Below the pieces are notes generated by a model. It saw only the letters and a program-made list of their open reading frames with translations, made no database searches and was not told the origin of the DNA. Of a stretch of 64,000 nucleotides of DNA, positions 7,741-55,821 are shown piece after piece. Position 1 is the stretch's first letter. Each line of letters opens with the position of its first letter. The translations under genes were made by a program, and so were the position numbers. Location: assembly GCF_011386835.1 (NCBI RefSeq), contig NC_088803.1:12090001-12154000 (forward strand). Direction: 5' to 3'. This DNA comes from Chrysemys picta bellii (lineage: Eukaryota).

Positions 7741-7741
<1 letters not shown>

Positions 7742-8280: not shown

Positions 8281-8389
8281 ATCTCCCCTTTCTCCACATG
8301 GTCTGTGTCTGTGCCAAGAGCTCCAGAGAATGGGAAATAAATTTCCATGTCTTTAGTAATAACATCAGGCTCTAACAGACCATTTGCCA

Positions 8390-10156: not shown

Positions 10157-10204
<48 letters not shown>

Positions 10205-16876: not shown

Positions 16877-17083
16877 CTGCAGTAGCAGGGAATACACAGT
16901 AGAGCGGCTTGTGCAGGACAATCACTGAAAACCGGACATTGCTAGATTTCTTTTCAAAACTTGCACTGCCCCTTACTAAACCGTTAAGCGCCTAGGGCAC
17001 ACTAATCATGAACAACCCATTCTTTTAATTGTTAATATTCCTGTTTTGTTAAAAATAAATGTTTAGATGTTTACAACACTTAC

Positions 17084-27506: not shown

Positions 27507-30149
27507 TTATGTAACAAACGCTTTTCTAGCCTTTTGCTGTGCAGATGCACTAATTATTGAGGAAAAATCTAGCTTTTGTGCAATGTCATAGTTGATATTA
27601 AGCATGATGAGCCCATTCAAATGCTCTTGTCCCATACTTGAACTGTGGAAGTTCTTTACCTGTTTCAAAACAGTGAAAGTGCATTCACCTGAAGCCACTG
27701 ATGCATGTAAATTGACAAAAACACACAATGCAATTGTGATATTAGGAAACACCCCAGAGAGTCCAAGTTCAAGTATTTCTTGAAGCAATTCCTTTGGCTT
27801 GCAACCCAATATAAAGTTCGTGGAATATATTCGTTTGAGGAAGATGACCTCGTCACTGAGATCTTTTGAGATTTCTTCATTGTACTGTTGCTGAAATTGT
27901 TCAGCTGCAGAAAGTAGATCTTCATTACTCAATCTGTTAAACTGGCAAAGAAACCCCCAAATTAGTCACAGTGACTCAAATTGGTGTGTATAGGGTGACC
28001 AGACTTCAAGAAAAATCAGGACAGGGGGTAGGAGGTAATAGTCGCCTATAGAAGAAAATTACCCAAATATCGGGACTGTCCCTATAAAATAGGGACATCT
28101 GGTCACCTAAAACACTTAAGACCTAATTGAATAGAATCAATGATGACAAGGAAGACATTGATCCTATAATGCTGCTCGGCTTCTGATTCAGTAGGTAAGT
28201 TGCGATTGGTGGACAACTCAGATGAAATGCCAATATTCTGTGCTACTAATTTGGACTCGGTCAGGTTCACATCTCATTGTTCACAAATCTGTTGAATGTC
28301 ATTGATAAGACTTGGAAGTTATCCGTCTCAACATTAAGTGTAGTATTGCATGCTTCAATTACCAAATTCGTTTTGTGGATCATTGTAAGTAGCTTCATCC
28401 ACAAAAAATGATATCAGAATGCATTCAAATTTAGACATGTGCTTCTGAATAGACTGAAGTTCAGTTCGAGCCTGTGCAGTGAGATTGAGAGATTCAAGCT
28501 CATTTAAAGACTTTCTCACTGAATTCAAATGCTGCGCAACTGATTGAACACCATCAATCTGTGCAGACCATCTAGTTTTGGACATCCCATGCAGTGGAAC
28601 AGGAAGATATTGCTTCATAATTTCCCACCTTTGTGGACTGCTACTGAAGAGATTGCCAAAGTAAGTAATTACCTCCTTGCATGATTTAGCACAATCATGT
28701 ATGTGGTTTAGTATGTGGTTTAGTATGTGGTTTCCACAGCTGGAGAAAATTCAGTTTTAATTATGATAAAGAAGAACTGCTTGTACACCTTTGTACTTCC
28801 CAGCCATATTAGTTCCATTGTCATAGGCCTGACCAATGCAGACTTGAACATCTAACTTAAAACCTTCTAGAATTGCTAGTACTTGAGCAGCAATTTCTTT
28901 TCCAGTTTTTCTTGTGAAATTATCAAACAAAATAAACCTTTCTTCAATTGAAATTTTTGATCTGTCTACAATTTTAATATATCGAATAACCATAGTAGTC
29001 TCTTCCTTGTGAGAGCAATCTGGAGTGGCATCAACAATGATTGAAAAATACTTGGCATTTCGAGTCTGATCAAGAATTGTTGTTTGTATGAATGACCTAT
29101 ATAGCTCAATAAACTCGTTTTGTATGTGTGTGGAGAGATAATGGACTTGCATGTACTTTTGACTTTTTTGTGATTCTCGAACAGGTTTAACGTGCTCTGA
29201 TAAAAATGGGTCATATTTGCTGAGGAGCTCAACTATGCCTAGAAAGTTTCCATTTGCACTATCACCAATACGTTGACTAGAACCAAATAAAGCCAATCCC
29301 CACTCAGAAAGAAAAAGGATGATATTCAGGATGTGCTCAAGAAGTTTTTTCCAGTTATTAGTTTCTGAGGAGAGTTCAGTGAACTGAATTTTCAGCTGAT
29401 GCTGCCCTATTGTCTGATTTCCATGCAACCTGGTTTTCTTTGCGTGATGTTGAACTCTCGTGTGATGGTAATCAGTCTTTCAACTTCCTCCAACCTCTCT
29501 TGATGCTCCATCCTGATTGATCAGAGAGAACTGATGCATTTGCCACACTTTTTTTTTCAAAATGAAACAGGGTGCACAGTACAGAGATTGTTTTTCTGTA
29601 CTCCAGCATAACCAGTCTCTTGTGCAGGTCTCACCATTTGGAAGAGTTTTTGTCAGCAGATGAGTAGGGAAAGCATGATTAGCAGCATCTTGTGGAATGT
29701 TACTTGGAATTTCAAATTTGAAGAAAAGATTGCATTTGGGCAGCATTGCTCTTGTCAATAATTCCAATGTCAGTCACAGTCAAACCTGTAGTACTGATGA
29801 ATTTCTCTTGCTGCATAAGATCTACATTTTCCTGTTGCTGTTGAGTTTCTTGATCATAAACAGGATCTTCTGCTACATCTGTTACTGTTGGCACATCCCC
29901 TTCTTGACTACTGTCCTCATGTTCAGCTCTTGGGATTGAAATATCACCTGTTTCAGTTGAGGAGTTTTCATTATCTGTAGCATTGTTTGTAGGGTAAGGT
30001 GTGTTTTCCAGGGGTTTGAGAAATGAAGTTGTTGGCTTTGAGCTCTTAGCTGCTGCTTCGCTCAGTTGTTTTCTCCATCTCTTGCTTGCACCACTTTCAA
30101 ATCTCCTCTTCACAGTGATCATTCTGGTCAATATGTCGCCTATCCACAC
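27507..30149 (-). pseudogene. hAT transposase pseudogene (pieces 29712-30149, 29480-29767, 28757-29428, 28355-28618, 27507-27932)
   Basis: Collinear hAT domains split by frameshifts and stops. Confidence 0.85.
27991..28109. mobile_element. Small hAT-Blackjack-like MITE nested in the hAT transposase
   Basis: Inverted termini TAGGGTGACCAGA...TCTGGTCACCTA. No TSD match. Confidence 0.6.
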
Positions 30150-30781
30150 TTGAAATATTCTGCTGTAAATAAGTAGCTTATCTACACTTGAAATCTTCTA
30201 ATGTAAACATGTACACAAATACTGAATGGTAAACAGATGCTGAAAAGACTTAAAACAAAGGAATACTAATTAAGAACACAAAATGAAACAGTCAGACAGG
30301 TTATTATCCTTATCACTGAATCAAAACTCAAGCATGCAAGGTATAATATAACAGGCTGAGCTGAAGACAAAGGGATGACATATATAGATATAGATATAGA
30401 TATAGATATATAGATATATATAGATAGATATAAAACACGCACACAGATACAGGGAGAGGGATAATGTCCATACATTTCAAAGGTGTGTCCTCATGAAACT
30501 CACTGTACAAGATTGTCCTCACAAATTTTCACCTTGAATCTGGTCCTATAGACTACAAAAGCCTATGATGATGGCCAAGCTACCAACCTAGGGCTCAACC
30601 AACCAACCAGTCACCTCTTTTAGCTACCATATGAAGATAATAATGAGGAATTCTCACACATAAATAATTCCTTAGTCAACTAGACGTAAAACTATAAAGA
30701 CACTAAAATGCAACAGTTCTCTATCTTTCAACATGCACTTGATCCAGCACCAGCCACTAGTAGTGGTTTCTTTATATAATC

Positions 30782-32129: not shown

Positions 32130-35100
32130 ATAAGAACATAAGAACGGCTGTACCGGGTCAGACCAAAAGTCCATCTAGCCCAGTATCCTGTCTACTGACA
32201 GTGGTCAATGCCAGGTGCCCCAGAGGGAGTGGACCTAACAGGCAATGATCAAGTGATCTCTCTCCTGCCATCCATCTCCATCCTCTGACAAACAGAGGCT
32301 AGGGACACCATTCCTTACCCATCCTGACTAATAGCCATTAATGGACTTAACCACCATGAATTTATCCAGTTCTCTTTTAAATACTGTTATAGTCCTAGCC
32401 TTCACAACCTCCTCAGGTAAGGAGTTCCACAAGTTGACTGTGCGCTGCATGAAGAAGAACTTCCTTGTATTTGTTTTAAACCTGCTGCCTATTAATTTCA
32501 TTTGGTGACCCCTAGTTCTTGTATTATGGGAATAAGTAAATAACTTTTCCTTATCCACTTTCTCCACATCACTCATGATTTTATATACCTCTATCATATT
32601 CCCCCTTAGTCTCCTCTTTTCCAAGCTGAAGAGTCCTAGCCTCTTTAATCTCTCTTCATATGGGACCCGTTCCAAACCCCTGATCATTTTAGTTGCCCTT
32701 TTCTGAACCTTTTCTAGTGCCAGTATATCTTTTTTGAGAAGAGACCACATCTGTACGCAGTGTTTGAGATGTGGGCGTACCATACATTTATATAAGGGCA
32801 ATAATATATTCTCAGTCTTATTCTCTATTCCCTTTTTAATGATCCCTAACATCCTGTTTGCTTTTTTGACCGCCTCTGCACACTGCGTGGACATCTTCAG
32901 AGAACTATCCACGATGACTCCAAGATCTTTTTCCTTACTTGTTGTAGCTAAATTAGCCCCCATCATATTGTATGTATAGTTGAGGTTATTTTTTCCAATG
33001 TGCATTACTTTACATTTATCCACATTAAATTTCATTTGCCATTTTGTTGCTCAATCACATAGTTTTGTGAGATCTTTTTGAAGTCCGTCAGTCTGCTTTG
33101 TTCTTAACTGTCTTGAGCAGTTTAGTATCATTTGCAAACTTTGCCACCTCACTGTTTACCCCTTTCTCCAGATCATTTATAAATAAGTTGAATAGGATTG
33201 GTCCGAGGACTGACCCTTGTGGAACACCACTTGTTACCCCTCTCCATTCTGAGAATTTACCATTAATTCCTACCCTTTGTTCCCTGTCTTTTAAAAAGTT
33301 CTCAATCCATGAAAGGACCTTCCCTTTTATCCCATGACAGCTTAATTTACGTAAGAGCCTTTGGTGAGGGACCTTGTCAAAGGCTTTCTGGAAATCTAAG
33401 TACACTATGTCCACTGGATCCCCCTTGTCCACATGTTTGTTGACCCCTTCAAAAAACTCTAATAGATTAGTAAAACATGATTTCCCTTTACAGAAACCAT
33501 GTTGACTATAGCTGAACAGTTTATGTTTTTCTATGTGTCTGACAATTTTATTCGTAACTATTGTTTCAACTAATTTGCCCAGTACTGACGTTAGACTTAC
33601 TGGTCTGTAATTGCCGGGATCACCTCTAGAGCTCTTTTTAAATATTGGCATTACATTAGCTAACTTCCAGTCATTGGGTACAGAAGCCGATTTAAAGGCG
33701 AGGTTACAAACCTTAGTTAATAGTTCCGCAACTTCACATTTGAGTTCTTTCAGAACTCTTGGGTGAATGCCATCTGGTCCCGGTGACTTGTTCATGTTAA
33801 GTTTATTAATTAATTCCAAAACCTTTTCTAGTGACCTTTCAATCTGTGACAGTTCCTCAGATTTGTCACCTACAAAAGCCGGCTCAGGTTTGGGAATCTC
33901 ACTAACATCCTCAGCCATGAAGACTGAAGCAAAGAATCCATTTAGTTTCTCTGCAATGACTTTATCGTCTTTAAGCGCTTCTTTTGTATCTCTATCATCA
34001 CGGGGCCCCATTGGTTGTTTAGCAGGCTTCCTGCTTCTGATGTACTTTAAAAACATTTTGTTATTACCTTTGGAGTTTTTGGCTAGCCGTTCTTCCAACT
34101 CCTCTTTGGCTTCTCTTATTACATTCTTGCACTTAATTTGGCAGCGTTTATGCTCCTTTCTATTTGCCTCACTAGGATTTGACTTCCACTTTTTAAAGGA
34201 AGTCTTTTTATCTCTCACTGCTTCTTTTCATTGGTTATTAAGCCATGGTGGCTCTTTTTTAGTTCTTTTACTGTGTTTATTAATTTGGGGTATACCTTGA
34301 AGTTGGGCCTCTATTATGGTGTCTTTAAAAAGTGCCCATGCAGCTTTCAGGGATTTCACTTTAGTCACTGTACTTTTTAACTTCTGTTTAACTAACCCCC
34401 TCATTTTTGCATAGTTCCCCCTTTTGAAATTAAATGCCACAGTGTTGGGCTGTTGAGATGTTCTTCCCACCACAGGGATGTTGAACGCTATTGTATTATG
34501 GTCACTATTTCCAAGTGATCCTCTTATAGTTACCTCTTGGACCAGCTCCTGCGCTCCACTCAGGACTAAATCTAGAGTTGCCGCTCCCCTTGTGGGTTCC
34601 CGTACCAGCTGCTCCATGAAGCAGTCATTTATAGTATCGAGAAATTTTATCTTTGTATTTCGTCCTGAAGTGAAATGTTCCCAGTGAATATGGGGATAAT
34701 TGAAATCCCCCACTGTTATTGGGTTCTTAATTTTGATAGCCTCTCTAATTTCCCTTAGCATTTCATCGTCACTATCACCGTCCTGGTCAGGTGGTCTATA
34801 ATAGATCCCTAATGTTATATTCTTATTAGAGCATGACATTTCTATCCATAGAGATTCTATGGAACATGTGGATTCACTTAAGATTTTTACTTCATTTGAT
34901 TATACATTTTCTTTCACATATAGTGCCGCTCCCCCCCGCACGACCTGTTCTGTCCTTCCAATATATTTTGTACCCCGGAATGATTGTGTCCCATTGATTG
35001 TTCTCAGTCCACCAGGTTTCTGTGATGCCTATTATATCAATATCCTCCTTTATCACAAGGCACTCTAGTTCACCCATCTTATTATTTAGACTTCTAGCAT

Positions 35101-37095: not shown

Positions 37096-37299
37096 AATCT
37101 GCCCTTTCCCCCATGGTCTGTGTCTGTGCCAAGAGCCCCAGAGAATGGGAAATAAATTTCCATGCCTTTAGTAATAACATCAGGCACTAACAGACCATTT
37201 CCCATCCAAAGATCTCAAAACACAGGCTCTGACTGACAAAAACTTGGGACACCTTGATTCTTCATTTGTAGACAGTGAATAATTATTACCCTTCCAATC

Positions 37300-38367
37300 A
37301 ACCTCTCTCAACACGCTACATTTCCATAGAGATCTTAGGGTCTCCTTGTTTCTCAGGCTGTAGAAGAGGGGATTGGTTAGGGGCATGAAGACAGTGTGAG
37401 GGACAGAAAACACTTTCTTCAGGGCTCTCAGTGCACTGGTGTTTAGTAATATATAGACAACCATTAGGATCCCATAGAAAACTGTAACTATGATAAGGTG
37501 GGAGGAGCAGGTGGAAAATGCTTTTTGCCTCCTGGTGGTGGAAGGGATTCTCAAGCTGGTGGAGATGATACAAACATAGGATTCCAGGGTCAAAAGAGAT
37601 GGGGAAACAATGTCTACAGAGGAGAACATGAGGGTCACCAGGATAACCAGACAAGGGCAAAATCACCAGAAAAATATCTATTTCATTAGGGACATGGAAG
37701 GCTAATTATGACATTAAATATCATAGAATGTCAGTGTGGGAAGGGACCTCATCTAGTCCAACCCCCTGTGCAAAGCATGACCAATCCCCAGACACATTTT
37801 TGCCCCAGATCCCTAAGTGACCTTTTCAAGGATTGAGCATATAACTCTGGGGTTAGTAGACCAATACTCAAACCACTGAGCTATCCCTCCCCCCTACAAA
37901 CTAGGAATGAACTTAGCCAAGATCCAACTGCTAACTACATACAGCACCTGCCATTCATAAGGGTTGCACTGTGCAGGGCTTTCGTTAAGTATTGATTATA
38001 AGCCATCAAAGTTAATTAAAAAAACACTCAACAGTCAATAGGAAACCAAACCAATAAAACTGCACAGTACAGCCGGTATCAGAAACAGTTTTGTCCCTAG
38101 TCAGGAGATTGGCCAGAATCCTGGGCAGGATGGTGGAGGTGTAGCAGATTTACTAGCAAGCGAAATTCCCCAGAAAGAAGTATATGGGGGGTATGGAGAT
38201 GCTGATCAGCCACAACTAGTGCCACAATGGTCATGGGCTCACTCACGATGACAGTGTAGGTCACTAGAGATCAGGAAGAGAAGAATGTGCAGGTTAGGGA
38301 GATCCCTGAATCCCAGCAGCATTCATTCTGTGATCGACATTTGATTTTCCCCTTCTGTTTTCTCCAT
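37300..38367 (-). pseudogene. OR pseudogene, full span but frameshifted and SINE-interrupted
   Basis: ATG at 38367 (MEKTEGENQM), recognisable RQKAFSTCSSHL and NPLFYSLRNKE, disrupted TM3/MAYDRY region, SINE at 37721-37894. Confidence 0.92.
37721..37894 (-). mobile_element. tRNA-derived SINE with CR1-type 3' tail (tortoise PolIII/SINE type)
   Basis: The minus strand starts GGGGGGAGGGATAGCTCAGTGGTTTGAG (A-box-like), has a B-box-like segment, then ttagggatctggggcaaaa and a CR1 tail attctatga. Confidence 0.85.
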
Positions 38368-41469: not shown

Positions 41470-42003
41470 TTTATGGGAACACCTGACTTTTCTGCAGAGC
41501 TCTCCTCAGGCCCTCCTTGACCTCTTTGTTTCTCAGGCTGTAAATGAGGGGATTGATCAGAGATGTCAAGACAGTTTAAAGGACAGAAACAAATTTGTTC
41601 AGAATTCTGAGTGCTCTGATGATGGAGATGATATAAATATAAGATGCCAGGGTCAAAAGAAATGGTAGAATGATGTTTGTGGAAGAGAAGATGAGGGTTG
41701 CCAGGTTAACCAGACCAGTGTCACTGCAGGAGAGGTTAATCATTCTGTGAGATCACAGAAGAAATGATCAATTTCATTAGGGCCACAAAAGGCTAATTGT
41801 GACACCAAATATATTATTTTAGCAAGAATGATGAATGACCTTAGCCAAGATCCAGCTGCTAGCTGCATACAGAACCTGACATTCATAAGTGTTGCATAGT
41901 GCAGGGGTTTGCATATCACTAAGTACCGATCATAAGACATTGAAGCTAGGAGATAACACTCAACAGTCAATAGGACACCAAACCAATAAAACTGAACTAG
42001 TAA
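41470..42003 (-). pseudogene. OR pseudogene, TM3 to C-terminus only, with an internal deletion of the TM6 region
   Basis: QFYWFGVLLTVECYLLASMSYDRYLVICKPLHY and FCGPNEIDHFFCDL. The KAFSTC segment and the 5' half are missing. Confidence 0.9.
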
Positions 42004-43017
42004 AACTAGTAAGAGGTAATAAGATCACAATTATTCCTTTGAGGTCATAGATTAGTCCAGGAAAGGAGAGACGAATTTAGGTGGCCCATGTTAGGAGATT
42101 CCCTATGCATCTACCAGAGGGGGGGAAGAGAAAAGATGGGGGGGCAGGGAAGAAGTCGGTTCAGCCTGCTTATGGAGCTACAGCAATAACTGCAGTTTTG
42201 TACCCCCACTTTATCACTAAATTGTTTTCTTCCTAACCAGGAGTCAGATTCTATTCTATTCACGTTCTTAAAACAATGCCCATCCCTGACTTATGTAAGC
42301 CCTGGGGCCTTGACAATTTGTCCCTTATGGACTAAACTCATTCCTCGGATTTAAGCCAGTTATGTTAAATGTTCACATTAATTTACATTTTGATAAAACA
42401 GCCAAAGTTTTATGGGTGGGGTAAAACATAGGAGTACTGTTAACTTTCTATAGCACTTTATGCTCTAAAAAGAGGTTGGTTCCTAACTCCCTTAGGCTAC
42501 CACTTTTTCACAGAGGCTTACACATGCTTTATTTGGTTATGTTGACTGAACTGTAAAACCCAACTCAGCCCTTTGGCCCCCATACCAGTCAGCTGACTCC
42601 AGGGACAAGGGACCAGGCTGGATCAGAGGTTCTGGAACAATTTTTATAGTGGGGTGTTGAGAGTCAGTGAACCAATCTGGAAACATAGGATGGAAACCAT
42701 AGGATGGAAGCCAGGGGGTGCGCTTCAGCACCATGGGCAGGAATGGTGGTGGTGGAGGGTCTGGCTGGGGCGGTGCATGACTACCATGATGGGGTGAGAG
42801 GCTGAAGATCCTCACTGGAGTGAGAGAAGATAGGAGCCCAAATGACTGGACAACACAAAGTATACGATTCACATAAAGTTGAATAAGAAATAGAAAAAAT
42901 AATACATTTATAAAAAGTTCAAAATAAATTTAAAATACTAATGAATAAAATACAAAAATATTAACAGACTTAAAAAAGGTAAAATAATAAAAACTGAAAA
43001 TAAAAGAATTGTAAAAT

Positions 43018-43364
43018 TGTAGGGATGCATAGCTCCCGAATCGCCAGTCCACAGGCGCAGCAAACTGCTCCCATGGCTACGAGGCAGGAGTGACCTTCAA
43101 TCCAGCGTTTGTGTTTGGGAAACTTATTTGGCTGATTTGATTGTACCCTCGCAGCTGGTGTTCACGCGCTCAAGAGATGGGTTCGTTATCTTATGTGCAT
43201 GTATACTGCCTGGCTTTTCTATGCGCAAGATTTGTACCAATGAGAAGCGTTGTAAGCAGGGAAGTGTAAAGAATAAAAGCCCCAGGAAAAGTTCCTGGAG
43301 GTAGAGGGGCTTTTCGGCTACCACAGACCTGGTGTTCTGTTTCCTTTCCTGCGTTGTCACCACA
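43018..43364 (+). repeat. 5' LTR, 347 bp
   Basis: TG...CA termini, CCAAT near 43236, AATAAA at 43272-43277. Identical to 47916-48262 by inspection. Confidence 0.97.
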
Positions 43365-43366
43365 GC

Positions 43367-43384
43367 TGGTGACCCCGACGTGAT
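43367..43384 (+). promoter_or_regulatory. Primer binding site, tRNA-Trp
   Basis: TGGTGACCCCGACGTGAT, 2 nt after the LTR. The same 18-mer I recall as the avian leukosis/Rous sarcoma virus PBS. Confidence 0.9.
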
Positions 43385-43452
43385 GACCCCGTACTCACCG
43401 GCTGGATATGCCGAGCGCGCCCGCGGCTGTTTGCCGCCCCTTATTCGTGAGT

Positions 43453-43644
43453 ATGGGGGTCGAACTTTCCAGTGCCCAGAAGGAGCACACAAGAGAGTTC
43501 AAGATTACACGGCAGCGATCATGCATCGTTGTCCCGGTCGCTCATATTGAGGACCCCCTAAGGGAAATAGACCGCCAGTGCCCCTGGTATCCGGACTGCA
43601 GGTCGGTATGGCTTCATGACTGGAAAACAGGTTGGAAACTTTGA
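43453..43644 (+). pseudogene. Betaretrovirus-like Gag matrix (p10-type) stub, 63 aa
   Basis: MGVELSSAQKEH...CPWYPD...LHDWK, and removing one A gives WKQVG. Matches the MG...CPWFP..G...DWKRVG pattern of MMTV/MPMV/HERV-K matrix. Confidence 0.75.
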
Positions 43645-43726
43645 GGGCATAGAGGAAGGAAAGGAGTAAGTAATTATAGGCATGGGGATTTCAAATCCCC
43701 AGGATGATAACTGGAATGGAAAAATG

Positions 43727-44096
43727 TGTATGAGACAGAGTTTTTGTACCAAGGTGCAAAGCTCTCCTTTATTCTGCAGAATAAAGCAACTCCTCCTTAT
43801 CCCTGTCTGGCTGTTATTGGCTCTCAGCCAGGTGGACCCAATATTTCGGTAACAGTTTCTGGTGACTCCGCCGGGACTCTCCTGGCTCGGACATTGGACT
43901 CCGGACGGCTGCGGCGAACTGGGAACGGCGCCAACGGGGTGTTTCACCCCTTTTCTCTGCTTCACCGCAGCCCCTGGGGTTCGTGCTCTGATAAGGTGAG
44001 TCCTAATAGGATAAGGAGACACTCTCTGGTAAAACCCTCTAAGGATAGCTCTTTGAATTATATGTTAAGTAAATGGCCTTTACCCGGTGTTTAAAA
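43727..44096 (+). mobile_element. Captured R-U5, Arg-type PBS, leader and gag stub of the ERV1-like family also present at 19489
   Basis: Collinear with about 19750-20050 and 20341-20404. U5 ends at 43854, PBS TGGTGACTCCGCCGGGAC at 43860-43877. Confidence 0.88.
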
Positions 44097-45506
44097 AGAA
44101 ATAGTTACACCTTGTGTAGAAATTGATGTGGCTAGTGTTGTGGAAATTGAATTGTGGAAAACATGTGCAGTATATATTGTAGTAGAGGTGTAAGAAATGC
44201 AAACCTACCAATATAGGTTGTGTTGTCTTGTTCAGATCACTGTAAAGAAGTAAAAGGCAATCAAAAGTCCGGGAAAGTTAATTGTGTCCCTTTTTAAGTA
44301 ATAATCTTTAAGCCGTGGATAGCTTTGGATCTGGAAGCAAGCCAGAAAGCATCTGTATTAATGCAATTTTCTAACTAATAAGGTAGTAGCCACTGAAACC
44401 TGGGCTGCATATGAAACAAATACAAGGAAATATGTGGTGATTTCTCTGTTTTGCCTAAAATCAACAAGAGTATGTGTATGTAAAGGAAATATTTTAAGTA
44501 ATGACTGACTGCCCAGAAGGGGTAGACCTCGGTTTTTTTGTCTTTCAGATCATCAGAGAAAACGGATGCCAGCTGAATAGCATTCGATGTACCATGCATT
44601 TACTGGTACAATAGGAATTATTTTTGTGTTCTTTGTCCTGTCTTGTGATGTTTGTCTTGTGGCCAGAATTGTTGTATTTAATATTTTCATAGGACAGTCT
44701 AGCTCAAATTTAAATAGAAGGGTTAAATCAAAAAGCAGATACTTGTTTTATTCATCTTGGAATACAAAGTGTTTGGATAAATCAGGAAAATGTGATATAC
44801 TAAAGTCTGATATATTTGCTTAAGTAAGAAAAAGAAACTTCATTGGCCAGATTTTTAATTGCAAAATTGTTGTTAAAATTTGCATACCAACAGTCTTTGG
44901 AAACAAGGACATGGAAGGTTAACCCACTCCCCATATTGCCCATGGGATCCTTCTGGCTACCTCAGATTTCTAGCCAGAGGGCTGGGGAGGGAGGAAAGCG
45001 ATTAGACACCTGAGGTTGTACCGAGTGAACTCCTCAAAAGTGGGTGTGCTTGTCCCGGTTTGTTGCTCCAAAGCTCTGTAATAAAGTTATTTTACTGGAA
45101 GAGTGTACACGGCATACATTGAATAATAAGACTAATGTACTGTATAATGGCAATGTGTATGCGTTCATTGTTGGAAAAAAGTGTATAAGTGAAGAGTGAA
45201 AGTTTCCTTTGTAGGTTAAAAGAAGCCGAGAAAGGGAGAAGAGGAAAAAGCACGGAATGAGTTAACTGAGGGAAAAATAGCTAGCAAGCTCAGTCCAAAG
45301 ATAAGACCTGGCTGACAGCCACGAAAAAGGGGGGCCTAAATGTGCCCAAACAACTGAGATTTGTAAAACAATGCCAGGCACTAATGAAATGTGTTAGGTT
45401 TTTTTCTCACAGATAAAAGAAGTGCTACCCAAAGACCCTAGCAGCCCTGCCGTTTATTGAAACAAGGAAACGGAGTCTATGTAAAGTCCATCAACGAAAG
45501 ACTGCT

Positions 45507-45710
45507 TTGGCTCCACACTGGAAAGGCCCTTTCCAAGTCCTGTTAACCACCAACACTGCTGTGAAGTGCCAAGGACTGCCCACCTGGACCCATGCTTCTC
45601 ACTGCAAAAAGACCCCTCCACCTGGAGAGGATTCTCCAGCTGCTAATCAGCCTATTTCGTCTTCTAGCTCTGCTGTGCCTCCTGGACAGCAGGGAAAGAG
45701 AACAAGGTGA
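45507..45710 (+). pseudogene. ERV1-type integrase C-terminal (GPY/F) fragment
   Basis: [32 protein letters not shown]. Confidence 0.88.
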
Positions 45711-45978
45711 AGTGCTAGTAACCTCTCCCTTGTCCACTGACAGACCTACTGTTGCTTTGAATTTTTCTAGAAGAAGCAAAACCATTACAGGGTGATGTGC
45801 TAGTAACCTCTCCCCTACATGATGCTAAACCACACTGTTTCAGGAAAAGAGAAGAAGGAACACTTGCTTCCTTGAAACCACAAAGTCCAGGAATTCCTGA
45901 CTACAAGAGACATTAAGAACTGACCCTGGTAAAGAAACAAAGAATTATAACCTGGAAAAAAAGAAACTTGTGGGACCC

Positions 45979-47261
45979 ATGCTTGGGAACGTGGTATTGA
46001 TTAGATTTTAAGGTTTATTTTACAGGCTGCGCCCTGTGTTTTGGATAAGTCCTTCAGCATGTATTGCCCTCCCTAATTGGATTTTAAATGATAAGTACCA
46101 AAGGCACCTTGTTGCCATTGCCCCTGCCATCTCCTCTATTACACTATTACCCCTGTAACACATCCAAATACAGACAATGACCCAGAAGTTGCTGACAGAG
46201 ATGGTATTGAATATCACTGAGGCTGGGAAGGCATTGCAGTGGGATCTAGCATGTTCAGGCTTGGCCCACTGCCCTTACAGACACATCAGGAGTACCATCT
46301 GATCTGTGGCATGAAGACATACTCGGAGACTTTCTGGGTGGAAGTGCAGACGTTCTCAGTGCTCCTTCCAAGCATATGGACCGGTTGAGGGGGTGTGGGC
46401 TCCCACATACCGAATCCTGCTGGGTCCATAGGGAGGATGCATGTGGGATTGGGTAATTCACCAAGACATCTGGGAAATTAGACTACCTGGTATGCCCAAT
46501 TGATTTTAGTAAGTGCTCCGGAGATTACATCTGACATTTGGATGGGGTTAGGGAGTCAATGGACATTTTGGCCGTTAGAACCCCCACAGCTTCAGTGTAT
46601 ATGTAAACTGAAGCCAGGAGAAGTTGTCACTGTTTATGACTACGTTTGCTGGGAGGGTAGGGGACAAGGAACTACCCTGACAGGACACTTACTCTTTTAA
46701 GCTAATGATAGCTGTGTGTATGTTAATGCCACCACATTGCAAGACATACATTTTAATCTCACTACCACTGCAGGCAACCATATCATTTACTGGCCTGCAG
46801 ATAGAGTTTTTCAAGTAGCCCTTAGGTTCCAGATACTTTTTAATTGGACTAGTTTAGTATCTGATAGATTTCAGAATTTGTTTTCACTGTTACCAGAGAT
46901 TCAGACAATCTCTGAAGTACAAGGGCAAATTCACATGCTTTATAATATATATTAAGTTGAAAAGTATGCTTTTCAGACAGCTTATAGAGTATCCATTTTA
47001 TGTACTAAGTAGGATGTATTGTGCTTTATGATTAAGATTGTACAACAGCCCCATTATATTATTGTTATGGGAATGTTATTGCTTGTGTTGCTATTAGTTA
47101 GCTTAGGATTATGTTATCATTGTTGTAAAAGACGTAATAATAGTAATACCTTTCATGTTTATGCTAATCATGCATTGTCATTACATCCAATCAGAACCCC
47201 TAAGATTGAAGCATCTGATGTAGAATTTGAAGTCCAGGACTTAATGCAAATAGAGATTTAA
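45979..47261 (+). pseudogene. Decayed env with a long TM subunit
   Basis: KYQR|HLVAIAPAISSITLL cleavage/fusion-peptide-like site at 46093-46149, heptad-like TQKLLTEMVLNITEAGKALQWDLAC, Cys-rich middle, membrane anchor IIVMGMLLLVLLLVSLGL. Several stops and frameshifts. Confidence 0.65.
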
Positions 47262-47283
47262 GAATGTTTGTTGTACTAGAAGT

Positions 47284-47666
47284 AAAAAAAAAAAAAAAAA
47301 AGGGGGGGGGGAGGAGTCGTGGAAGCAGAGAAAGAACTGTCAGAAAAGAACTGCTATGCATGACAGTTTGTTAGTAAGAGTCAGGCTAACTGTAACCCTG
47401 ATAACGCGAGATTTGTAGAAGCGAGGATTGTGTGAGGCGGGTGAGAAAGTACTGTGTGAGAAGTTATTGTGACCTTGTGTAGATAAGGTCTAGAAAATAT
47501 TGTATGTTGGCAAGAGTCAAAACAAGTAAGGAATTAAGATATCAAGATGGCCTATGTATAACAAAATGCAGCTGTCCCTCATTATTTCTGTAATGAAAAG
47601 TATAAATGCAAGGTCTGTTAAGTACCTGCCTTGTTCCTGTTTGCAAACCACTCAATTTGCAATAAT
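47284..47666 (+). mobile_element. Internal PPT (A18G10) followed by a U3-like segment of a different LTR type
   Basis: Polypurine run at 47284-47311, TATAAA at 47601-47606, AATAAT (broken polyA-like signal) at 47661-47666. Confidence 0.6.
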
Positions 47667-47915
47667 AGAGTATTGATTAGGTATAGCTTTATACCCCCTT
47701 TGTAGCAAATTATGCCAATAATACTTGTGCCAAAGTAGTTAATTGTTTTATTTACAAACCCCGTGGGGGTGTTTGGCAATTGGTCAAGCCTTATGGGATT
47801 GGCGTTTTGCTTTGCTGTTTTGCTTAGTGTATACCCAATCTAGTGGCATTGTGTATGCTACCCTGCGAGAGTGTTTTGTTTAAACACCGCATTTATAAAA
47901 TAAAACAGGGGGGGA

Positions 47916-48262
47916 TGTAGGGATGCATAGCTCCCGAATCGCCAGTCCACAGGCGCAGCAAACTGCTCCCATGGCTACGAGGCAGGAGTGACCTTCAATC
48001 CAGCGTTTGTGTTTGGGAAACTTATTTGGCTGATTTGATTGTACCCTCGCAGCTGGTGTTCACGCGCTCAAGAGATGGGTTCGTTATCTTATGTGCATGT
48101 ATACTGCCTGGCTTTTCTATGCGCAAGATTTGTACCAATGAGAAGCGTTGTAAGCAGGGAAGTGTAAAGAATAAAAGCCCCAGGAAAAGTTCCTGGAGGT
48201 AGAGGGGCTTTTCGGCTACCACAGACCTGGTGTTCTGTTTCCTTTCCTGCGTTGTCACCACA
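47916..48262 (+). repeat. 3' LTR, 347 bp
   Basis: Preceded by PPT AAAATAAAACAGGGGGGGA. Identical to the 5' LTR by inspection. Confidence 0.97.
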
Positions 48263-49554
48263 TAAAATACATACAAAACCATAAAAGGGGAAATAAAATA
48301 AAATGAAACTTAAAATATATAAACAACAATAAAATCAAAAAGGAAATACACGTAAAATATATTAAAAAGGTAAAAATATAACTATTAAGAAAAGACACAC
48401 ACACAAAAAGAAAGAAAAAAGAAGTACAATTGCAAAACTGAGGGCGAGAGTCCATGGGGTTTGTGCTCCTATATCACAGGTGAGGAGCTCTGGTGTGTGC
48501 CCCCGTGTCCCCCTCTCTGCCCCCATGTGGACAGGGCTAGACAGCAGTCTTACTCTGGCCATATGGCCACCCCAGCTTGGGAGTGAGGGGCGGCGCCCTC
48601 CCGGGCTTCCGGATCCACAGACAAAGCCCGGGGGGAACCACTCACATTTATACTTGCTGGACACAAGTGTTGTACAGGAGGCTAGGCAACCCCCCTGTTA
48701 TACACTGAGCAATGAGGGCTCCCTCCGTGTGGGGCAGAGGCGAGACCCTGCGCTCCAGGGCCAAAGTAGCTGGTGGACAGACCCCGCTGGAGCGGGGAAT
48801 GTCGGCAGGCGCCAGTCTGCCTTGGATGGAGTCATCTCCACTTGAGTAAGCAAGACTCCCCACAACCACCAGGCACCTCTTCTGTCAGTGGTTGGTGACC
48901 CTGACTCCTGGAGAGACCCCCGGGAGAGTGAGAGAGAGAGAGATGGGGTGTCCCTCAGCTGGGCTCCCTGGGGTGAGATTCAGCCCAGCCGCCATGGGGT
49001 ACACAAGGTACTAGGTGGAGAGGGGAAGGAGAGAGAGAGCCAGGCTGGACACCTCCGGGCTCTGCTCCCCTCTCTGCACCAGCCTGAGTGGGGGGCCTCA
49101 GGGGTTTTCCCAGCATGTACCCAGCTCACCCAACCTTGTGACATGGGGTCTGGGCCAAGCCTTCGGAATGAGGGGAGAGAAAAGGGCAATGCTGCCTCTG
49201 CCCGGGCTGTGCAGGGAATCACCCCGCCCGCCTGGAACTGGCCTCTGGGGACTCGGCTGGGATTGTAGCTCACTGAGACTTCCAGAGCCTGGCCCCATTG
49301 TGGTCACACCATGAAGGAGAACAGAAACACCTGCCTTTAAAATTCAACTGTATCTAGGGTGACCCCACCTGTATTTCAAGTTCCCTAATAGAGGACACTG
49401 TTGTGGTGGGTGAGCTCGAGGAGGTATTTCGGGGTGCTGGAGGGGTGTGTGTGTACTGGGAGATGGTATTTGGGAGGTGCTGGACAGAGTATTTGGGGTG
49501 TGTCAGAGCAGGGGCACCTCTCAGGACTGGGGGACCTCACGCAGGCATGCCACC

Positions 49555-49735: not shown

Positions 49736-50774
49736 CTTGAGTCTTTGAACTAAAATCATTGTGTGGGTGTCTTTGACCACAACAGTAGTAATAAATAGTT
49801 AGATTTCACAAAGAGACAGATAAACAGCAGGGACTGCCAAGGATCTGTATGCCTGCCAATGTATTAATTAATGATCTGGAAAAGTGAGTGAATAGTAAAG
49901 TGGCAGAGTTTGCAGATGATAAAAAATTATAGCAGATAGCTATTTCCAAAGCTGACTGTAAAAAATTACAGGGAGATCTCACAAAATTGGGGACTGGGTA
50001 ACTGGGTAACAAAACGGCAGATGAAATTCAGTATTGTTAAGTGTAAAGTAATGCATAGTGGGAAAAATAGTCCAAAGTATGCACACATAATGATGGGTTC
50101 TAAATTAGCTGTTACTCCTAAGGAAAGAGATATGGGAGTCATCGAGGATAGTGGGGAAAAGTGAATAGAGAAGTGTATCTACCCTTTCCCACAATACGAA
50201 AAACAGAGGTCACCTGATGAAATTCATAGACAGCAGGTTTAATACAACAAGAGGAAATATTTTTTTTTACACAATGCAAAATTAATCTGTGGAACTCATT
50301 TCCCTGGGATAGTGTACTGGTCAAAAGTACACCTGTGTTCAAAATAAAGGTTAATGAGGTTGACAGATTTGTATCTATATAATATAGCACTTCAACTGTG
50401 TTCTATTGTAAGGCCGTTCCACTCCAGTAGCTTTGTATACACACCGGCCTGGTTTGAGATTGAAAAATCTTAGCTATGTCATTTGGTTCCCTCTCTTCTA
50501 TTATAAATCTTAAGAGATACTGACTCCCTTAAGGGAACTTTAATTTTTTCCTTTTGCAAATTTGTGTATTTTGAGGATGCTGGAGGTTGCTATTACCAAG
50601 CAGTAATTATTTTAGTGACCAAAAGAGTTATTTTGAGAAAATAGAAATATGCGAGTTCTCCCTCCTACACAGACTGCCTTAGTGAGCTTTCTATGATGGC
50701 ATTAATGGAAAAAATGACTCTGTCTTATAGTAACACTTGGAAAACATATGAAGATATCTGGTCACACATGAAAC

Positions 50775-51529
50775 TGTGAGGAAAAGGAACTGGGTAGCCT
50801 TCTTTATAACAGCCAAGATGGTGACGAAGGCCCAAATTCAGAGCCTCTAACAGAAGCTCAATACACGGACTGCCCTTATAGAAAGCAATACAGGCCAGAT
50901 CCTAAACAAAACTAAGATACACGATTCCCTGCCAAGTTCAGTCAAGGGTTATGATCAGAGGAGAGAGGGGAAGGGAACAATGCAAAAGGCCTCAGCAACA
51001 TAATAACCGCCTTAGCAACATTATAACCGCTTGTTTATGAAATATAATAACCGCTCATATGAAGAAACCGCTTCTAGTAAAGTCCAACCTCTCCTATAAG
51101 TTCCAGTTAGCTGCCAAACCAGCCAATCATATCTCTTCTTTGGGCGTCCTGTAATAAACCCCTATGTCCTTAACCGTAAAACCCCGGAAAAATAATATAT
51201 ACTTTGACGAGAAAAGCATTGCAACCGGTGCCAAGTACCACCCATGTCGGAAACCACCAGGAAACCCCTCACCCAATAGACACCCAATTCTCGTAAATTA
51301 ATAGGGAAGTTACCAGGAAAAAGGACAGACCCCAACTCTTATATTCACATAAATGACATATTGTTTGTACTATGCTTGCGGTTTGACATAATAAAGCAGC
51401 CTACGAGCTGCTGCTAGGTGTGACAGTTCTCGGACTGATCACCCCAACGTTGGTTTGTATTGCAATAAACTAGCCTCAGACTTGCATCTGTGAACTAAAA
51501 TCAATGCGTGGGTGACTTTTTCCACGACA
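50775..51529 (+). mobile_element. Solo LTR (755 bp), ERV1-like
   Basis: TG...CA termini, 4-bp TSD AAAC (50771-50774, 51530-51533), AATAAA near 51464. Absent from the paralogous site near 3758. Confidence 0.9.
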
Positions 51530-52124
51530 AAACTATTGCATACTTTTGCAGTTTAGTATTTATTAGTCTTCAATACTCAGAGGATATGTTCTCACATGTT
51601 TGCCTATTTAGTCACTTTAATAGTTGATGTCCTGGATGACCTCTGCGGGTTCAGGGTTTTTATTTGTTTACTTGCTTGGTTCCAGGTTTACAAAATAATG
51701 AGCCTTGAATTTGGTTATTTATATGCTAGGTCCATCTCGGACATGTATTTATAGATGTTTTGTTTTGTTATGTGTTCATATTTAATGTCAAAACAATAAA
51801 ATTAAGGTTTAAAGAAGGCTCACTCATTCACACTATGGCTTCCCACTATCCCCATTCTTCCTATTTCTCATTCCAATGGGAGAACCACTGGCTACTAGGG
51901 TTAGAGAGACTGAGATAACATAGGGAATAACAACCAATGCAGCTGTGTCAATTTACACATGCTGAGGATCTGCCTAATTTACCTAAATAAATACAACTGA
52001 ATAGGAGGCGCAAATGTAAAAAGTGCTGAGTATCTTCTTGCTATAACTGTGGAGGTCTGACAAGGACTTGGGTCCTTTCAGACCAGAACTGATTTATTGC
52101 CATATCAGTCACCCTCTCTAAATC

Positions 52125-52210
52125 AAGAAGAACAGGAGTACTTGTGGCACCTTAGAGACTAACAAATTTATTAGAGCATATTAGAGCATTTATTAGAGCT
52201 ACTCTGAAAA
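52125..52210 (-). mobile_element. 86-bp Penelope-like terminal fragment inserted at the OR stop codon
   Basis: aacaggagtacttgtggcaccttagagactaacaaatttattagagcat flanked by the 11-bp duplication CTCTCTAAATC (52114-52124, 52211-52221). Absent from the paralog at about 4365. Confidence 0.8.
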
Positions 52211-52214
52211 CTCT

Positions 52215-53156
52215 CTAAATCCTACATTTCTGGAGACCTCTCCTCAGCGCCTCCTTGACCTCTTTGTTTCTCAGGCTGTAGATGAGGGGATTGATCAGGG
52301 GTGTAAAGACTGTGTAAAGGACCGAAAACACTTTGTTTGGGGCTCTGAGTGCACCGGAGTTTGGTAATATGTAGACAGAAATTAGGGTCGCATAGAAAAT
52401 TGTAACCACAATAAGGTGGGAGGAGCAGGTAGAAAATGCCTTTTGCCTCCCAGTGGTAGAAGGGATTCTCAGGATGGTGGAGATGATATAAACATAAGAT
52501 GTCAGGGTCAAAAGAAATGGAGGGACAGTGTCTATGGAGGCGAATATGAGCGTCACCAGGGTAACCAGACTGGTGTTACTGCAGGAGAGTTTAATGACTG
52601 GGGTGAGATCACAAAAAAAATGATCAATTTCATTAGGGCCACAGAATGCTAATTGTGAAACCAAATATATTAATATGGTAATAAGTATGAATGAACTTAT
52701 CCAAGATCCAGCTGCTAGCTGGATACAGAACCTGCCATTCATACGGGTGACATAGTGCAGCGGTTTACATATTGCTAAGTAGCGATCAAAAGACATTACA
52801 GCTAGCAGATAACACTCAGTGGTCAGTAGCAGAGCAAAGCAGTAAAACTGTATGATGCATTGGCTGACAGAAATGGTCCTGTTTCCAGTCAGGAGACTGG
52901 CCAGCACCCTGGGCAGGATGGTGGAGGTGTAGCAGATTTCCAAGCAGGACAAGTTTCCCAAGAAGAAGTACATGGGGGTGTGAAGGTGCTGATCAGCCAC
53001 AACTAGTGCAGCAATGAGCATGTTCGCAGCCATGGTGACTATGTAGATCACTAGAAAGAGCAGGAAGAAAAGAATGCGCAGTTCAGGGAGGTTCCCAAAT
53101 CCCAGCAGGATGAATTCGGTGATAGACGTTTGATTTTCCCTTTCTCCTTTCTCCAT
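52215..53156 (-). CDS. Olfactory receptor, class II, intact (313 aa from MEKGERENQTS), subfamily 'a'
   Basis: All OR motifs present. I count 25 amino-acid differences from the OR at 4368-5309. Acceptor AG at 53204-53203. Confidence 0.95.
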   Translation of the reverse strand: MEKGERENQTSITEFILLGFGNLPELRILFFLLFLVIYIVTMAANMLIAALVVADQHLHTPMYFFLGNLSCLEICYTSTILPRVLASLLTGNRTISVSQCIIQFYCFALLLTTECYLLAVMSFDRYLAICKPLHYVTRMNGRFCIQLAAGSWISSFILITILIYLVSQLAFCGPNEIDHFFCDLTPVIKLSCSNTSLVTLVTLIFASIDTVPPFLLTLTSYVYIISTILRIPSTTGRQKAFSTCSSHLIVVTIFYATLISVYILPNSGALRAPNKVFSVLYTVFTPLINPLIYSLRNKEVKEALRRGLQKCRI

Positions 53157-55544
53157 GAGATGTACGTCGGTTTCCTCTTTCTCCTCTCTCCATGTGACAT
53201 ATCTAGTGATAGAGAAAAAGTAATAATTAGTTAGGGCGGATGCTGTACATTGAAGCTGGGTGGATTTCCCTCCATTTGATTCCATAATAATTCACACCAC
53301 TGAGATCATTGTTTATATTGTTTCACAATTAAAAAAAAACAAAAACAAAAAACCTGTGCCACAGTCAAGTTTTGCTCAGAATTTTGGAACAGAGAAATCC
53401 CCCCATCTGCCTCTTCAATAAAGCAACAACATAGTTAACTGATCACTTTCTGCTCCTGCCCACAGGTTTTTGGTTTTTTCATGTACGGATTAATAGATTT
53501 TAAGGCCCAAAAGAGCTATTAGATCCTGTATAACACACACCATGGTTCCCCCAGTTTCCCCCACATTGAACTCAATAATCAGTATTTGGCTAACAGAGAT
53601 TTTCTAGAAAAGCATCCAGGACCAAATCTTTAAGGCTATTTAGCCACTTAATAGGAATTTAAAAGAATCTAGACTCCCAAGAATTAGCAGCTTCAATGGG
53701 TGTTTGCCATCTCGATGCCTTTAAAAATCTGACCCTCCATCTTGATTTGAAGGCATCAAGAGACAGGGAATCGACCACTGATCTTGGCAGTTTGTCCCAC
53801 AGGTTAATCACCCTCACTTTTAAAAACATGTGTTTATTTATCATTTAATTTGGTCTGACTTTAACTTCCAGCCACTGTTTTTTGTCCTTCCTTTGTCCAC
53901 TAGTTTCAAGAGCCCTTTAGTACCTGCTCCTTTCTCTCTATTCACTGTAATCAAGTCAGCTCTCAGTCTTGTTTTTGATAAGCTAAAGAGTTGGGCTCTT
54001 TGAACTGTTTTTCACTTTGAAGCATTTTCTCCAGCCCAGCATCATTTTTGTGTCTCTTTGAGTTACAATCATCTGTGATCTTGCAACATTCTTCTTAAAA
54101 TGCGAACCCCAGAACTGGATGCAGTATTCCATTGCCTGTCTCACCAGTGCTGTATAGAGAGGTGATTACACTTTCCTGCTCGTTCTTCCTCTGTTTATCC
54201 ATCCAAGGATCAAATCCACTCTCTTAGCCATGGCATCGTAGGGGGAGCTTATTCTGAGTTGCTCCTCCACCTGTGACTCCTAAATTTATTTGATGGGGGA
54301 TAGGGTCATACGGACAGACACTCTAGGACATGAATGTGATTGTATCCAGCTAGTGCCAAAAATGAGGGCGGGATACTGATCAGCAGCACAGAAGACAAGA
54401 GACTATATAGAGGTTCCTGCCCAATGCACAAAGGAGACCTCCCAATCAGGCAGACATGCAGATTCCTCTCACTCTTATTGCCTTAGTGAACCATCAAGGA
54501 ACACTAAACCCTCTTATTATTGGTCATGAATTGTGAACTATTAGTTATTGATCGATCAACTATAAAATGAGCTGTAAAAACATACAACCAACTATTAGCT
54601 CTCAGCAGTTGCTTGACTGTCATGAGTCTGTAGGGATGGAACTGCAGACCAGCTCTGTGTAGCAAAAAGAGCTGCAGTAAATTAGTACACCGGGCCACTC
54701 TCTCTGTTCAGTAATTTCAGGAGCTCTAAAGGGATATAGCGGGGGGAAGAAAGGAAAGTGTACCCTTGTAAGGTTCTTAGATAACCCCATTACAGAAGCA
54801 CGCCTCATAATACCTCTTGAGGTACAGCAATGCTGTTATCCACATTTTATGGATGGAGAGCTGAGGCAGAGAGCAAAAGAGCCAGATTTTTAAAGATATT
54901 TTGTGCCTAGTTCAATTTTCAAAAGCAGTTAGTGCCTAGCTCCCAACTCACTAAGCACCTAAATACCTTTAAAAATCAAGCCCAGAGTGACTTGGTCAGT
55001 ACTACACATTGATGATCTGGCAGAGCAGAAAAGACAAGTCAGGTCTCCCAAACATCACCATAGTGCCCCAACCATTGGACTATCCTTGCTCTTGAGTGCA
55101 AGGTTGGAGCAGCAAATGACAGGCAAAGTTTGTTATGCAGGTGTCGCTGCTTCCCAAGCTGTCAGGAATGCCAAGCCCCATTCAGTTCATTTCTAATGTG
55201 GACCCCTTTCGTGTGTGGTGCTCAGCACCTCACAAGAAATGATGAGGGGTTCAACTCCCATTGTAATCCATGGAGAAGATTCTCAACAGGAGACATGTAG
55301 CATCTCCCAGGACTGGGCAGGGAAAGTGAACCTTAAGAAAATGATGCCCTGCCAGGCAGAAAGAGAGAGAGACAGACAGAAAGAAAGGAAAAGAAGGATA
55401 TATAGATAGAGGGATGTGTAAGGATAAGGGTTGGTAGAGCGAGGTTACAGAGACAGATACTTATTTAATGGTTAGATAGATCTGTAAAGAACTCAACAGA
55501 GAGATGAACCCATAAATAAGTAGATAGATAGAGGGATGAGTAAT

Positions 55545-55633
<89 letters not shown>
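55545..55633. repeat. (GATA)n microsatellite, about 22 units
   Basis: Perfect run, paralog of 7671-7740. Confidence 0.98.
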
Positions 55634-55635
<2 letters not shown>

Positions 55636-55821
55636 GGGGCTTAACACATAGATCTTCTTTGTGATTCATCCATTTCTCTAGCAGTATCATGATGAGATAG
55701 AAGCTTAAGTCCTTATTCAGCCAAAGCTGTCAGGAAGTGAGGACCCTGTCTAATAGGAGTGTTCTTCTAAGTGAGGTAAAGTCTGAGGAAGAGTGTGAGG
55801 GTTTGCCCTGAGGCTGGTAAC

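Follow-up and report, generated by a model that had tools for sequence, protein, structure and literature searches.

How do the ends of one class of retrovirus come to enclose the body of another? The question is raised by a provirus of the painted turtle, Chrysemys picta bellii, which lies in a stretch of 64,000 nucleotides of contig NC_088803.1 (assembly GCF_011386835.1, positions 12,090,001 to 12,154,000 of the forward strand), hereafter the window, in whose numbering all coordinates are given. Comparison of the window with itself places the provirus at 43018–48262 (5245 nt). Its left end had been read, in the original prediction, as evidence for a recently active class II endogenous retrovirus (ERV) lineage. 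Here we describe how the whole element is built, to which class each of its parts belongs, and how its 5′ junction recurs in other data. We consider it probable that the element is a non-autonomous cross-class recombinant ERV with class II ends and a class I-type interior, similar in kind to the koala recombinant recKoRV and moved by class II proteins.

The outer frame consists of target-site duplications (TSDs), long terminal repeats (LTRs), a primer-binding site (PBS), the beginning of gag with its matrix (MA) coding region, and a 3′ end with a polypurine tract (PPT):

43012..43017, + strand: left TSD, TAAAAT
43018..43364, + strand: 5′ LTR of the outer class II element, 347 nt, TG...CA, with CCAAT at 43237 and a single AATAAA at 43272 followed by a hairpin
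43367..43384, + strand: PBS, exact complement of the tRNA-Trp 3′ end
43385..43452, + strand: outer leader, CpG-rich, presumed to hold the packaging signal
43453..43623, + strand: class II gag matrix stub, the first 58 codons, one codon short, 78–79% identical to Terrapene and Chrysemys Gag
43624..43721, + strand: about 98 nt without assignment
47609..47915, + strand: 3′ end of the outer element, with a possible env-tail remnant and the PPT
47916..48262, + strand: 3′ LTR, same sequence as the 5′ LTR
48263..48268, + strand: right TSD, TAAAAT

The TSD and the identity of the LTRs, both proposed originally, are borne out. When lengths from 3 to 10 were tried, only 6 gave a duplication, which abuts the TG...CA ends of the LTRs exactly, and the LTRs, recovered as the one perfect repeat of the self-comparison, match at 347 of 347 nt. 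The insertion site is A-rich (62% A), and a 6-mer duplication would arise there by chance with a probability of 0.6–2%; six base pairs is the TSD norm for ERV2 (PMC4299795). All 5.2 kb lie within the identical LTRs and the 6-bp TSD, so that the chimera entered the genome as a single unit. The A-rich tract is continuous around the provirus, with 62–64% A on each side (42870–43011 and 48269–48430). The env-tail likeness of 47609..47915 is not significant (best E 0.06–0.6), and this segment has no Pfam or protein match. A search of 42900–48400 against Rfam at E<=1 retrieved no family, including the retroviral dr1 and packaging RNAs.

The interior measures 4.55 kb, of which about 3.9 kb (43727–47608) is a class I-type ERV, to which the original prediction did not refer. 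Its recognizable parts, together with the junctions, are the following:

43722..43726, + strand: AAATG, the 5-nt repeat at the 5′ junction of the captured segment
43727..43854, + strand: captured LTR end (U3 end, R, U5), with AATAAA at 43780 and the terminal CA at 43854, 86% identical to window 19750–20055
43860..43877, + strand: second PBS-like site, belonging to the captured element and aligned with a TGG-start site in the copy at 19.9 kb
43878..44096, + strand: captured leader with a splice-donor-like AGGTGAGT (43994–44001) and a class I-type gag-start remnant (44032–44096)
45489..45614, + strand: remnant of the integrase C-terminal domain, class I (gamma-type), Pfam MLVIN_C, E 4.2e-13
46177..47261, + strand: broken env remnant (transmembrane (TM) ectodomain, membrane anchor and tail), 88% identical to a Chrysemys protein over 251 aa, with three stops
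47284..47608, + strand: captured PPT and U3-like stretch, ending in a TATA box (47601–47607) and the second AAATG (47604–47608)

The inner class is assigned from the MLVIN_C domain, the gammaretroviral pol matches and the gag start, the segment being without reverse transcriptase (RT). All seven pol matches listed for the integrase (IN) remnant are gammaretroviral loci (E 3e-9 to 1e-7); the gag-start remnant at 44032–44096 we take to be of class I type, and the second PBS-like site to be tRNA-Arg-like. The inner LTR end, PBS-like site, leader and gag start are 86–94% identical to a separate ERV fragment at 19750–20404. This second fragment of the inner family extends over 19750–20700 and contains an LTR end, a different PBS-like site, a leader, a gag start and a protease remnant (Pfam RVP, E 5e-4); it is cut off by a CR1-like piece near 20760. 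The observed/expected CpG ratio falls to 0.18–0.23 in the middle and env of the captured segment, compared with 0.61 for the outer LTR and 0.89 for the outer leader together with MA. Under the recombinant explanation, and with the same likelihood, the inner piece would be a permuted copy, one unit long, of a class I-type turtle ERV that is abundant and more decayed, the opening lying at the TATA box of its own LTR.

Both junctions carry the word AAATG; the chance of finding a common 5-mer close to two points taken at random is 2.9%. The stretch from LTR to matrix is present in 20 runs of other data sets from seven studies, 19 of which hold half or more of its words; four presumed RNA runs (X21–X24) hold none of them and prove nothing. 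Contigs of four runs (X1, X2, X7 and X20) were aligned to the window, 32 of 1237 pieces being listed; in such data depth is not copy number, an uncovered flank is not an absence, and transcription cannot be read from contigs. The 5′ junction is bridged in two of the four runs, from two studies, by X7 record 26 (43410–43859) and X2 record 11 (43621–43988). Each contig, unplaced as to locus, differs from the window at six positions, and they therefore represent other copies or alleles. In X1 and X7 contigs the 98-nt segment comes after the matrix stub, and the inner family diverges from the window just upstream of 43720–43721 in X20 (record 17) and X1. The sequence of the X1 relatives upstream of this point (one loose end of two contigs) is TATA-like, which fits an inner LTR opened at its own TATA box. 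The cap site of an RNA, with forced copy choice, was considered as the origin of the 5′ junction and rejected, since in the same two-contig loose end the TATA-like tract lies directly upstream. At the other side, contigs begin at 47606–47611 in three runs. In X1, X2 and X7 the summed depth of contigs rises at about 43700 and falls at about 47607, being higher over the inner part, and X20 has hardly any coverage of the outer parts; this is only a hint. Among the contigs listed for the four runs, none joins unique flanks to the LTRs. X1 and X2 also contain a joint from 46745 to 47606, by which the inner env passes, at its middle, into the 3′ end of the outer element. The word TGCAAG is common to both sides, and the joint represents either a deletion derivative or an independent recombinant.

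Two other accounts of these junctions have to be weighed. The first is a secondary, "piggy-back" integration, by which a class I provirus entered a resident class II provirus and was later trimmed by deletions. Nested forms are common among human ERVs (PMC4724089), and the 5-nt direct repeat around the inner piece can be read as a TSD; however, the inner piece both starts and ends within its own LTR, at complementary points by the TATA box and with no CA end, it is more decayed than the difference-free outer LTRs, and the junction recurs with sequence differences in other runs. We therefore regard such a history as unlikely. The second is an assembly artefact fusing two repeat families, for which the repetitive nature of both families and of the region could be cited; the perfect TSD around the whole unit and the independent contigs over the 5′ junction make it extremely improbable.

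The recombinant explanation leads to the question of which lineage provided the ends. A PBS mirrors only a conserved host tRNA. The site at 43367 is 18 nt long, follows the LTR after a 2-nt spacer, occurs once in the window (chance 0.01), and is exact in nine IMG/VR contigs, which we take, judging from their long open reading frames (ORFs), to be of the avian sarcoma/leukosis virus (ASLV) type; labels of IMG/VR references are our own assignments. The claimed identity with the ALV/RSV primer site was thus confirmed, also by the printed tRNA-Trp 3′ end, of which it is the reverse complement (10.1101/400127), and by its description as the ALV and EAV primer (PMC5029493). This agrees with the tRNA-Trp primer of alpharetroviruses and departs from the tRNA-Lys primer of betaretroviruses. 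Still, blastn of the element against the nine loci yielded the PBS and one 18-nt chance stretch only, with no other DNA likeness to ASLV; PBS type is an unstable marker (PMC4724089), and non-Lys primers also occur in avian beta-like ERVs (PMC3482500).

Among the LTR signals, the AATAAA does lie 35 nt past the CCAAT box (43237 to 43272), as had been noted, but this spacing is not diagnostic of alpha- or betaretroviral LTRs: the distance from AATAAA to the PBS, 95 nt, falls in the range of five gammaretrovirus loci (84–99), compared with 108 in ASLV and 127–148 in EAV- and SMRV-type reference loci. In the ASLV, EAV and SMRV loci a TATA box stands 21–23 nt upstream of AATAAA. A scan of the window LTR found no TATA match upstream of its AATAAA, and therefore the hexamer itself could be the TATA element. 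Compared with the alpharetrovirus arrangement, with the poly(A) signal in U3 about 23 nt after the TATA box, this LTR has a single AATAAA and no upstream TATA match. A strong hairpin (43271–43325, −18.8 kcal/mol, a value without shuffle control) overlaps and directly follows the single AATAAA and may hide the poly(A) signal in the 5′ LTR.

The ORF of 63 aa (43453–43644) begins with MG, contains CPWYP, runs past 43623 into unrelated sequence and stops at 43644. The profile check proposed for it gave a match to Pfam Gag_p10 (E 1.4e-4, 22.1 bits, slightly under the cut-off of 23.9), and its best PDB match is a Gag (E 0.17). The MG start and CPWYP of the betaretroviral motif seen originally stand, and its DWK(Q)VG part falls: gag homology to all seven relatives tested stops at DW (43623), the relatives shown read DWIRIG, and the QVG letters of the window lie in another frame, past the deletion. 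The stub departs from four relatives at nine of the 53 columns where those agree and the LTRs differ nowhere, so that the template was defective before this insertion. The following 98 nt, without Pfam or protein match, are probably a distal piece of the outer family remaining after a large gag–pol deletion; a minor, more diverged form in X1 leaves the window at 43604 and is probably undeleted gag. The matrix matches betaretroviral Gags with E from 2e-7 to 2e-3, compared with E > 5 for ASLV Gag.

A search for longer relatives returned two of four candidates, namely Gag models from Terrapene triunguis and C. picta bellii itself (78–79% identity); the Gag relatives have seven cluster members. 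The Terrapene and Chrysemys relatives carry Gag_p10, Gag_p24 and integrase domains above cut-off. A model from Emys orbicularis (P0018), 83% identical to the Terrapene protein P0003 in the capsid (CA) region and 95% in IN, has CA, RT, RNase H and IN, with YMDD seen, and served as the RT proxy of the outer family, the window copy being without RT. The capsid scores 82 bits to HERV-K compared with 38 to RSV, and the integrase 91 bits to its best reference entries, which we take to be MMTV, compared with 65 to RSV. Neither matrix nor capsid is therefore of the alpharetroviral type.

In the RT tree (84 rows, 13 of 97 having been dropped as near-duplicate or short), the Emys proxy belongs to a seven-row clade with Gopherus, Natator, Thamnophis and three unnamed proteins (99/99). 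This reptile clade lies inside the alpha plus beta group (99/98) and outside the exogenous betaretrovirus clade of MMTV, JSRV and M-PMV (99/97), the alpha/beta backbone having no firm resolution. The Pol tree (26 of 37 chosen rows kept, with MMTV among the rows lost to the motif rule) agrees: reptile clade 97/97, alpha plus beta placement 97/96, and an exogenous-beta clade (100/100) without the reptile group. Both trees were built under LG+G4 with no mixture model, and ASLV forms a long branch. In the approximately unbiased (AU) test, pairing of Emys with ASLV is rejected (p 0.003), sister grouping of the whole reptile clade with ASLV is not rejected (p 0.32), and its grouping with betaretroviruses narrowly escapes rejection (p 0.053). 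Placement with class II rather than class I or III was thus upheld for the Emys proxy. In a short IN tree, used for this placement only (5 of 26 rows lost to the motif rule, P0007 misaligned), a Podarcis protein with dUTPase (PF00692) joins the reptile group (93/97); the family gene models skip the nucleocapsid and protease region. Sea turtles, namely Lepidochelys (P0038), Natator (P0028) and Eretmochelys (P0029), have a related class II family with a matrix 33% identical to the stub and a Pol cluster of 42 members, which suggests a second sizeable class II expansion in turtles. Beta-related ERVs have been reported in Testudines before (Xu et al., 2018, PMC6001957).

On these sequence comparisons, the outer element is assignable to a reptile class II family, beta-like and with a Trp primer, in emydid turtles, and the RT clade, which extends over several families of turtles and includes a snake, speaks for long residence in reptiles and not for a recent jump. 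The original prediction had seen in the combination of an alpha-like primer with a beta-like matrix an intermediate or cross-species lineage, still or very recently infectious. Its class II origin and a geologically recent insertion stand; the intermediate is not supported, only the primer being alpha-like. The exact tRNA-Trp site shared with ASLV and EAV, the identical LTRs, the 19 runs with much of the LTR–matrix stretch, the backbone that leaves an alpha sister grouping acceptable, and the nine invading ERV units known from 5 of 20 turtle species (PMC10435555) can be brought forward for it. In contrast, the direct Emys–ASLV pairing is rejected, MA, CA and IN score as beta, the clade covers emydid, tortoise and sea-turtle hosts and a snake, and the window copy has no intact ORF and an age bound of 2–9 million years (My). 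All this makes an intermediate quite unlikely.

The age bound follows from the LTRs: zero differences over 347 nt give a 95% upper age of 2.2–8.6 My if rates between 2e-9 and 5e-10 per site per year are assumed. The CpG content of the LTR, described originally as undecayed, is indeed high, with an observed/expected ratio of 0.61 compared with a window median of 0.21, a value reached by 7.6% of 347-nt windows. An older insertion with LTRs homogenized by gene conversion would explain the damaged interior and matrix stub, and turtles evolve slowly (PMC4054807), making 347 nt of identity weak for dating; yet each LTR keeps 13 CpGs, the TSD is perfect, and LTR contigs with no differences exist in X1 (record 1) and X2 (record 9), which renders conversion very improbable. 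Thus, the insertion is geologically recent, though not necessarily ongoing. For Wang and Han (2023, PMC10435555), an invading ERV has identical LTRs, with gag, pro, pol and env all intact; the provirus has the former, contains no intact ORF or gene, and is for this reason not an invading ERV.

Several observations weigh against the recombinant explanation. The RT link runs by proxy (stub to P0003 79%, P0003 to P0018 83% in the CA region and 95% in IN). No formal bridge over the 3′ junction appears among the 32 listed of 1237 pieces, and X2 record 15 passes it by 27 nt only. X1 record 3 tracks the outer part to 43725 and is then unlike the window for 235 nt, with no listed joint to 47609, so that the inner piece may have been inserted into outer sequence or may have replaced it. 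The inner LTR and leader are also CpG-rich (0.50–0.61) and many contigs are at least 99% alike; therefore the inner family need not be old. Finally, the evidence for the chimera comprises one window copy and the contigs of four runs.

With these reservations, the cross-class recombination could have proceeded as follows. A deleted class II genome would have recombined with an abundant class I-type element at a microhomology of 5 nt, either through a switch of template in a shared particle in the course of reverse transcription, as has been proposed for recKoRV (PMC6112702), or by crossover with a one-LTR circle. The recombinant would have kept the class II cis signals (LTRs, tRNA-Trp PBS, leader, matrix stub and PPT), nearly the whole interior being exchanged for a permuted class I-type unit opened at its LTR TATA box. 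Transcribed from the class II LTR, packaged and primed by tRNA-Trp, the chimera would then have been integrated by class II Gag and Pol acting in trans, leaving the 6-bp TSD and identical LTRs. Gene models of Emys, Terrapene and Chrysemys contain this class II family's Gag, RT, RNase H and IN; judging from these predicted proteins, helper-capable relatives existed.

The captured env offers a weak further lead. The remnant has three stops in its distal part of 251 aa, more breaks before that, a frame break near 46506, and lacks the region of the cleavage site and fusion peptide. A search returned eight proteins, all seven named ones from turtles, and the family has only 15 representatives among 1.84 billion proteins; it appears small and turtle-centred (P0010–P0017, P0137–P0149), with one divergent member (P0142) at 30% identity. 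Natural relatives have an R-x-K-R site and a TM ectodomain of about 350 aa. They match no Pfam family beyond one weak membrane-anchor hit, with no match to PF00523, have no meaningful PDB sequence match, and show no likeness to the envs of the reference loci compared. A first AlphaFold model (pLDDT 41) gave no clear fold match. For a second, of a natural relative (pLDDT 45), Foldseek placed RSV F at ranks 1–11 in PDB (E 0.012–0.12) and, at the top of the BFVD list, the F0 of a shark paramyxovirus (E 7.3e-4), but with TM-scores of about 0.1 and a VIA Z of at most 4.4. From these models, the odds that the captured env is F-like, of the paramyxovirus or pneumovirus kind, are about even. F-like Env has been described for lokiretroviruses (PMC7947760).

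A bolder version of the recombinant explanation would hold that the Trp-primed reptile class II lineage is still active in emydids, spreading a polymorphic chimera with two primer sites, whose captured class I-type env is F-like as in lokiretroviruses. We consider this possible, with the balance against it; if true, reptiles would have a system corresponding to KoRV/recKoRV, and env and backbone would be paired in a new way.

The surroundings of the provirus are presumably a tandem cluster of olfactory receptor genes and remnants (4368–5444, 25309–26301, 37180–37662, 41471–41970, 52215–53291, 58423–59457), with a broken receptor gene, as we take it, 1 kb from the provirus. The window also contains a segmental duplication (963–8999 and 49785–56903, about 89–94%). 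We further assume that 13337–17883 holds nearly intact Harbinger-like transposase and Myb/SANT-like ORFs, and that 9942–11355, 27507–30197 and 32328–34899 are a Gypsy/SCAN-like remnant, hAT-like transposase remnants and a long CR1 remnant, respectively.

Recombination between a young retrovirus and a resident ERV has been followed in detail mainly in koalas. If the explanation favoured here is true, a reptile that lives long and evolves slowly shows the same route of degradation and remobilization to be open between ERV classes and beyond mammals. The junctions of the chimera are easy population markers, and screens requiring RT and intact genes overlook such elements. The analysis flags a recently active, apparently uncharacterized Trp-primed reptile class II branch, which bears on primer use and on the split between alpha- and betaretroviruses; it shows no currently infectious virus. 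In the open literature searched, neither a Trp-primed class II family of turtles nor such a chimera was found described, subscription papers and Repbase, which has painted-turtle LTR entries (PMC4299795), lying outside this scope.

Each ingredient of the element is already known, and what is new is the combination, a cross-class recKoRV-like element in a turtle. With alpharetroviruses (ALV/RSV) and the avian EAV and alphabeta ERVs (PMC3482500) the element shares class II membership, a short LTR and the identical 18-nt tRNA-Trp PBS; it differs in having no other DNA likeness, a different matrix family and a rejected direct RT pairing. The alphabeta ERVs are, moreover, described as galliform and dUTPase-less (PMC3482500), whereas the lizard member of the reptile group carries dUTPase. 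Alpha-like envelopes are reported to be widespread in reptiles (PMC13568524). With betaretroviruses (MMTV, JSRV, M-PMV) and HERV-K(HML-2) the common features are a Gag_p10 matrix with an MG start, the best CA and IN scores, the 6-bp TSD and the 2-nt PBS spacer, whereas the proxy RT stands outside the exogenous-beta clade (99/97) and the primer is Trp, not Lys. The beta-related ERVs of reptiles (clade Shui, PMC6001957; PyERV, via PMC3758190 and PMC3482500) likewise have a class II RT in Testudines and Squamata and a beta-type Gag; a tRNA-Trp primer and such a chimera were not found described in the literature searched, and PyERV is outside the tree constructed here. Lokiretrovirus Env (PMC7947760) and the captured env family have in common the RXKR site, the long TM ectodomain and a weak likeness to paramyxovirus and pneumovirus F, but the captured family has no PF00523 match, stands beside a gamma-type integrase tail, and owes its likeness to a low-confidence model.

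Class I env capture by class II viruses is documented (PMC3758190), and human mosaic ERVs are mostly single-class, with few cross-class ones (PMC4724089). The closest parallel is recKoRV1, in which KoRV ends surround the older PhER (Löber et al., 2018, PMC6112702). In the turtle, too, the ends of one ERV enclose the body of another and the unit was integrated with a TSD. In both elements a non-coding older ERV of high copy number is framed by a young LTR, leader and 3′ end, and both share breakpoint microhomology, a normal TSD, identical LTRs and presumed mobilization in trans. As to recurrent breakpoints, the turtle data have the 5′ junction in two of the four runs and the short passage over the 3′ junction. 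The turtle chimera is known from one full copy, so that spread and polymorphism are not part of the likeness. Apart from its host, it differs from recKoRV1 in that the outer element is class II and the inner one class I-type, and in that the inner piece, nearly one unit long and permuted, has a PBS and a PPT of its own.

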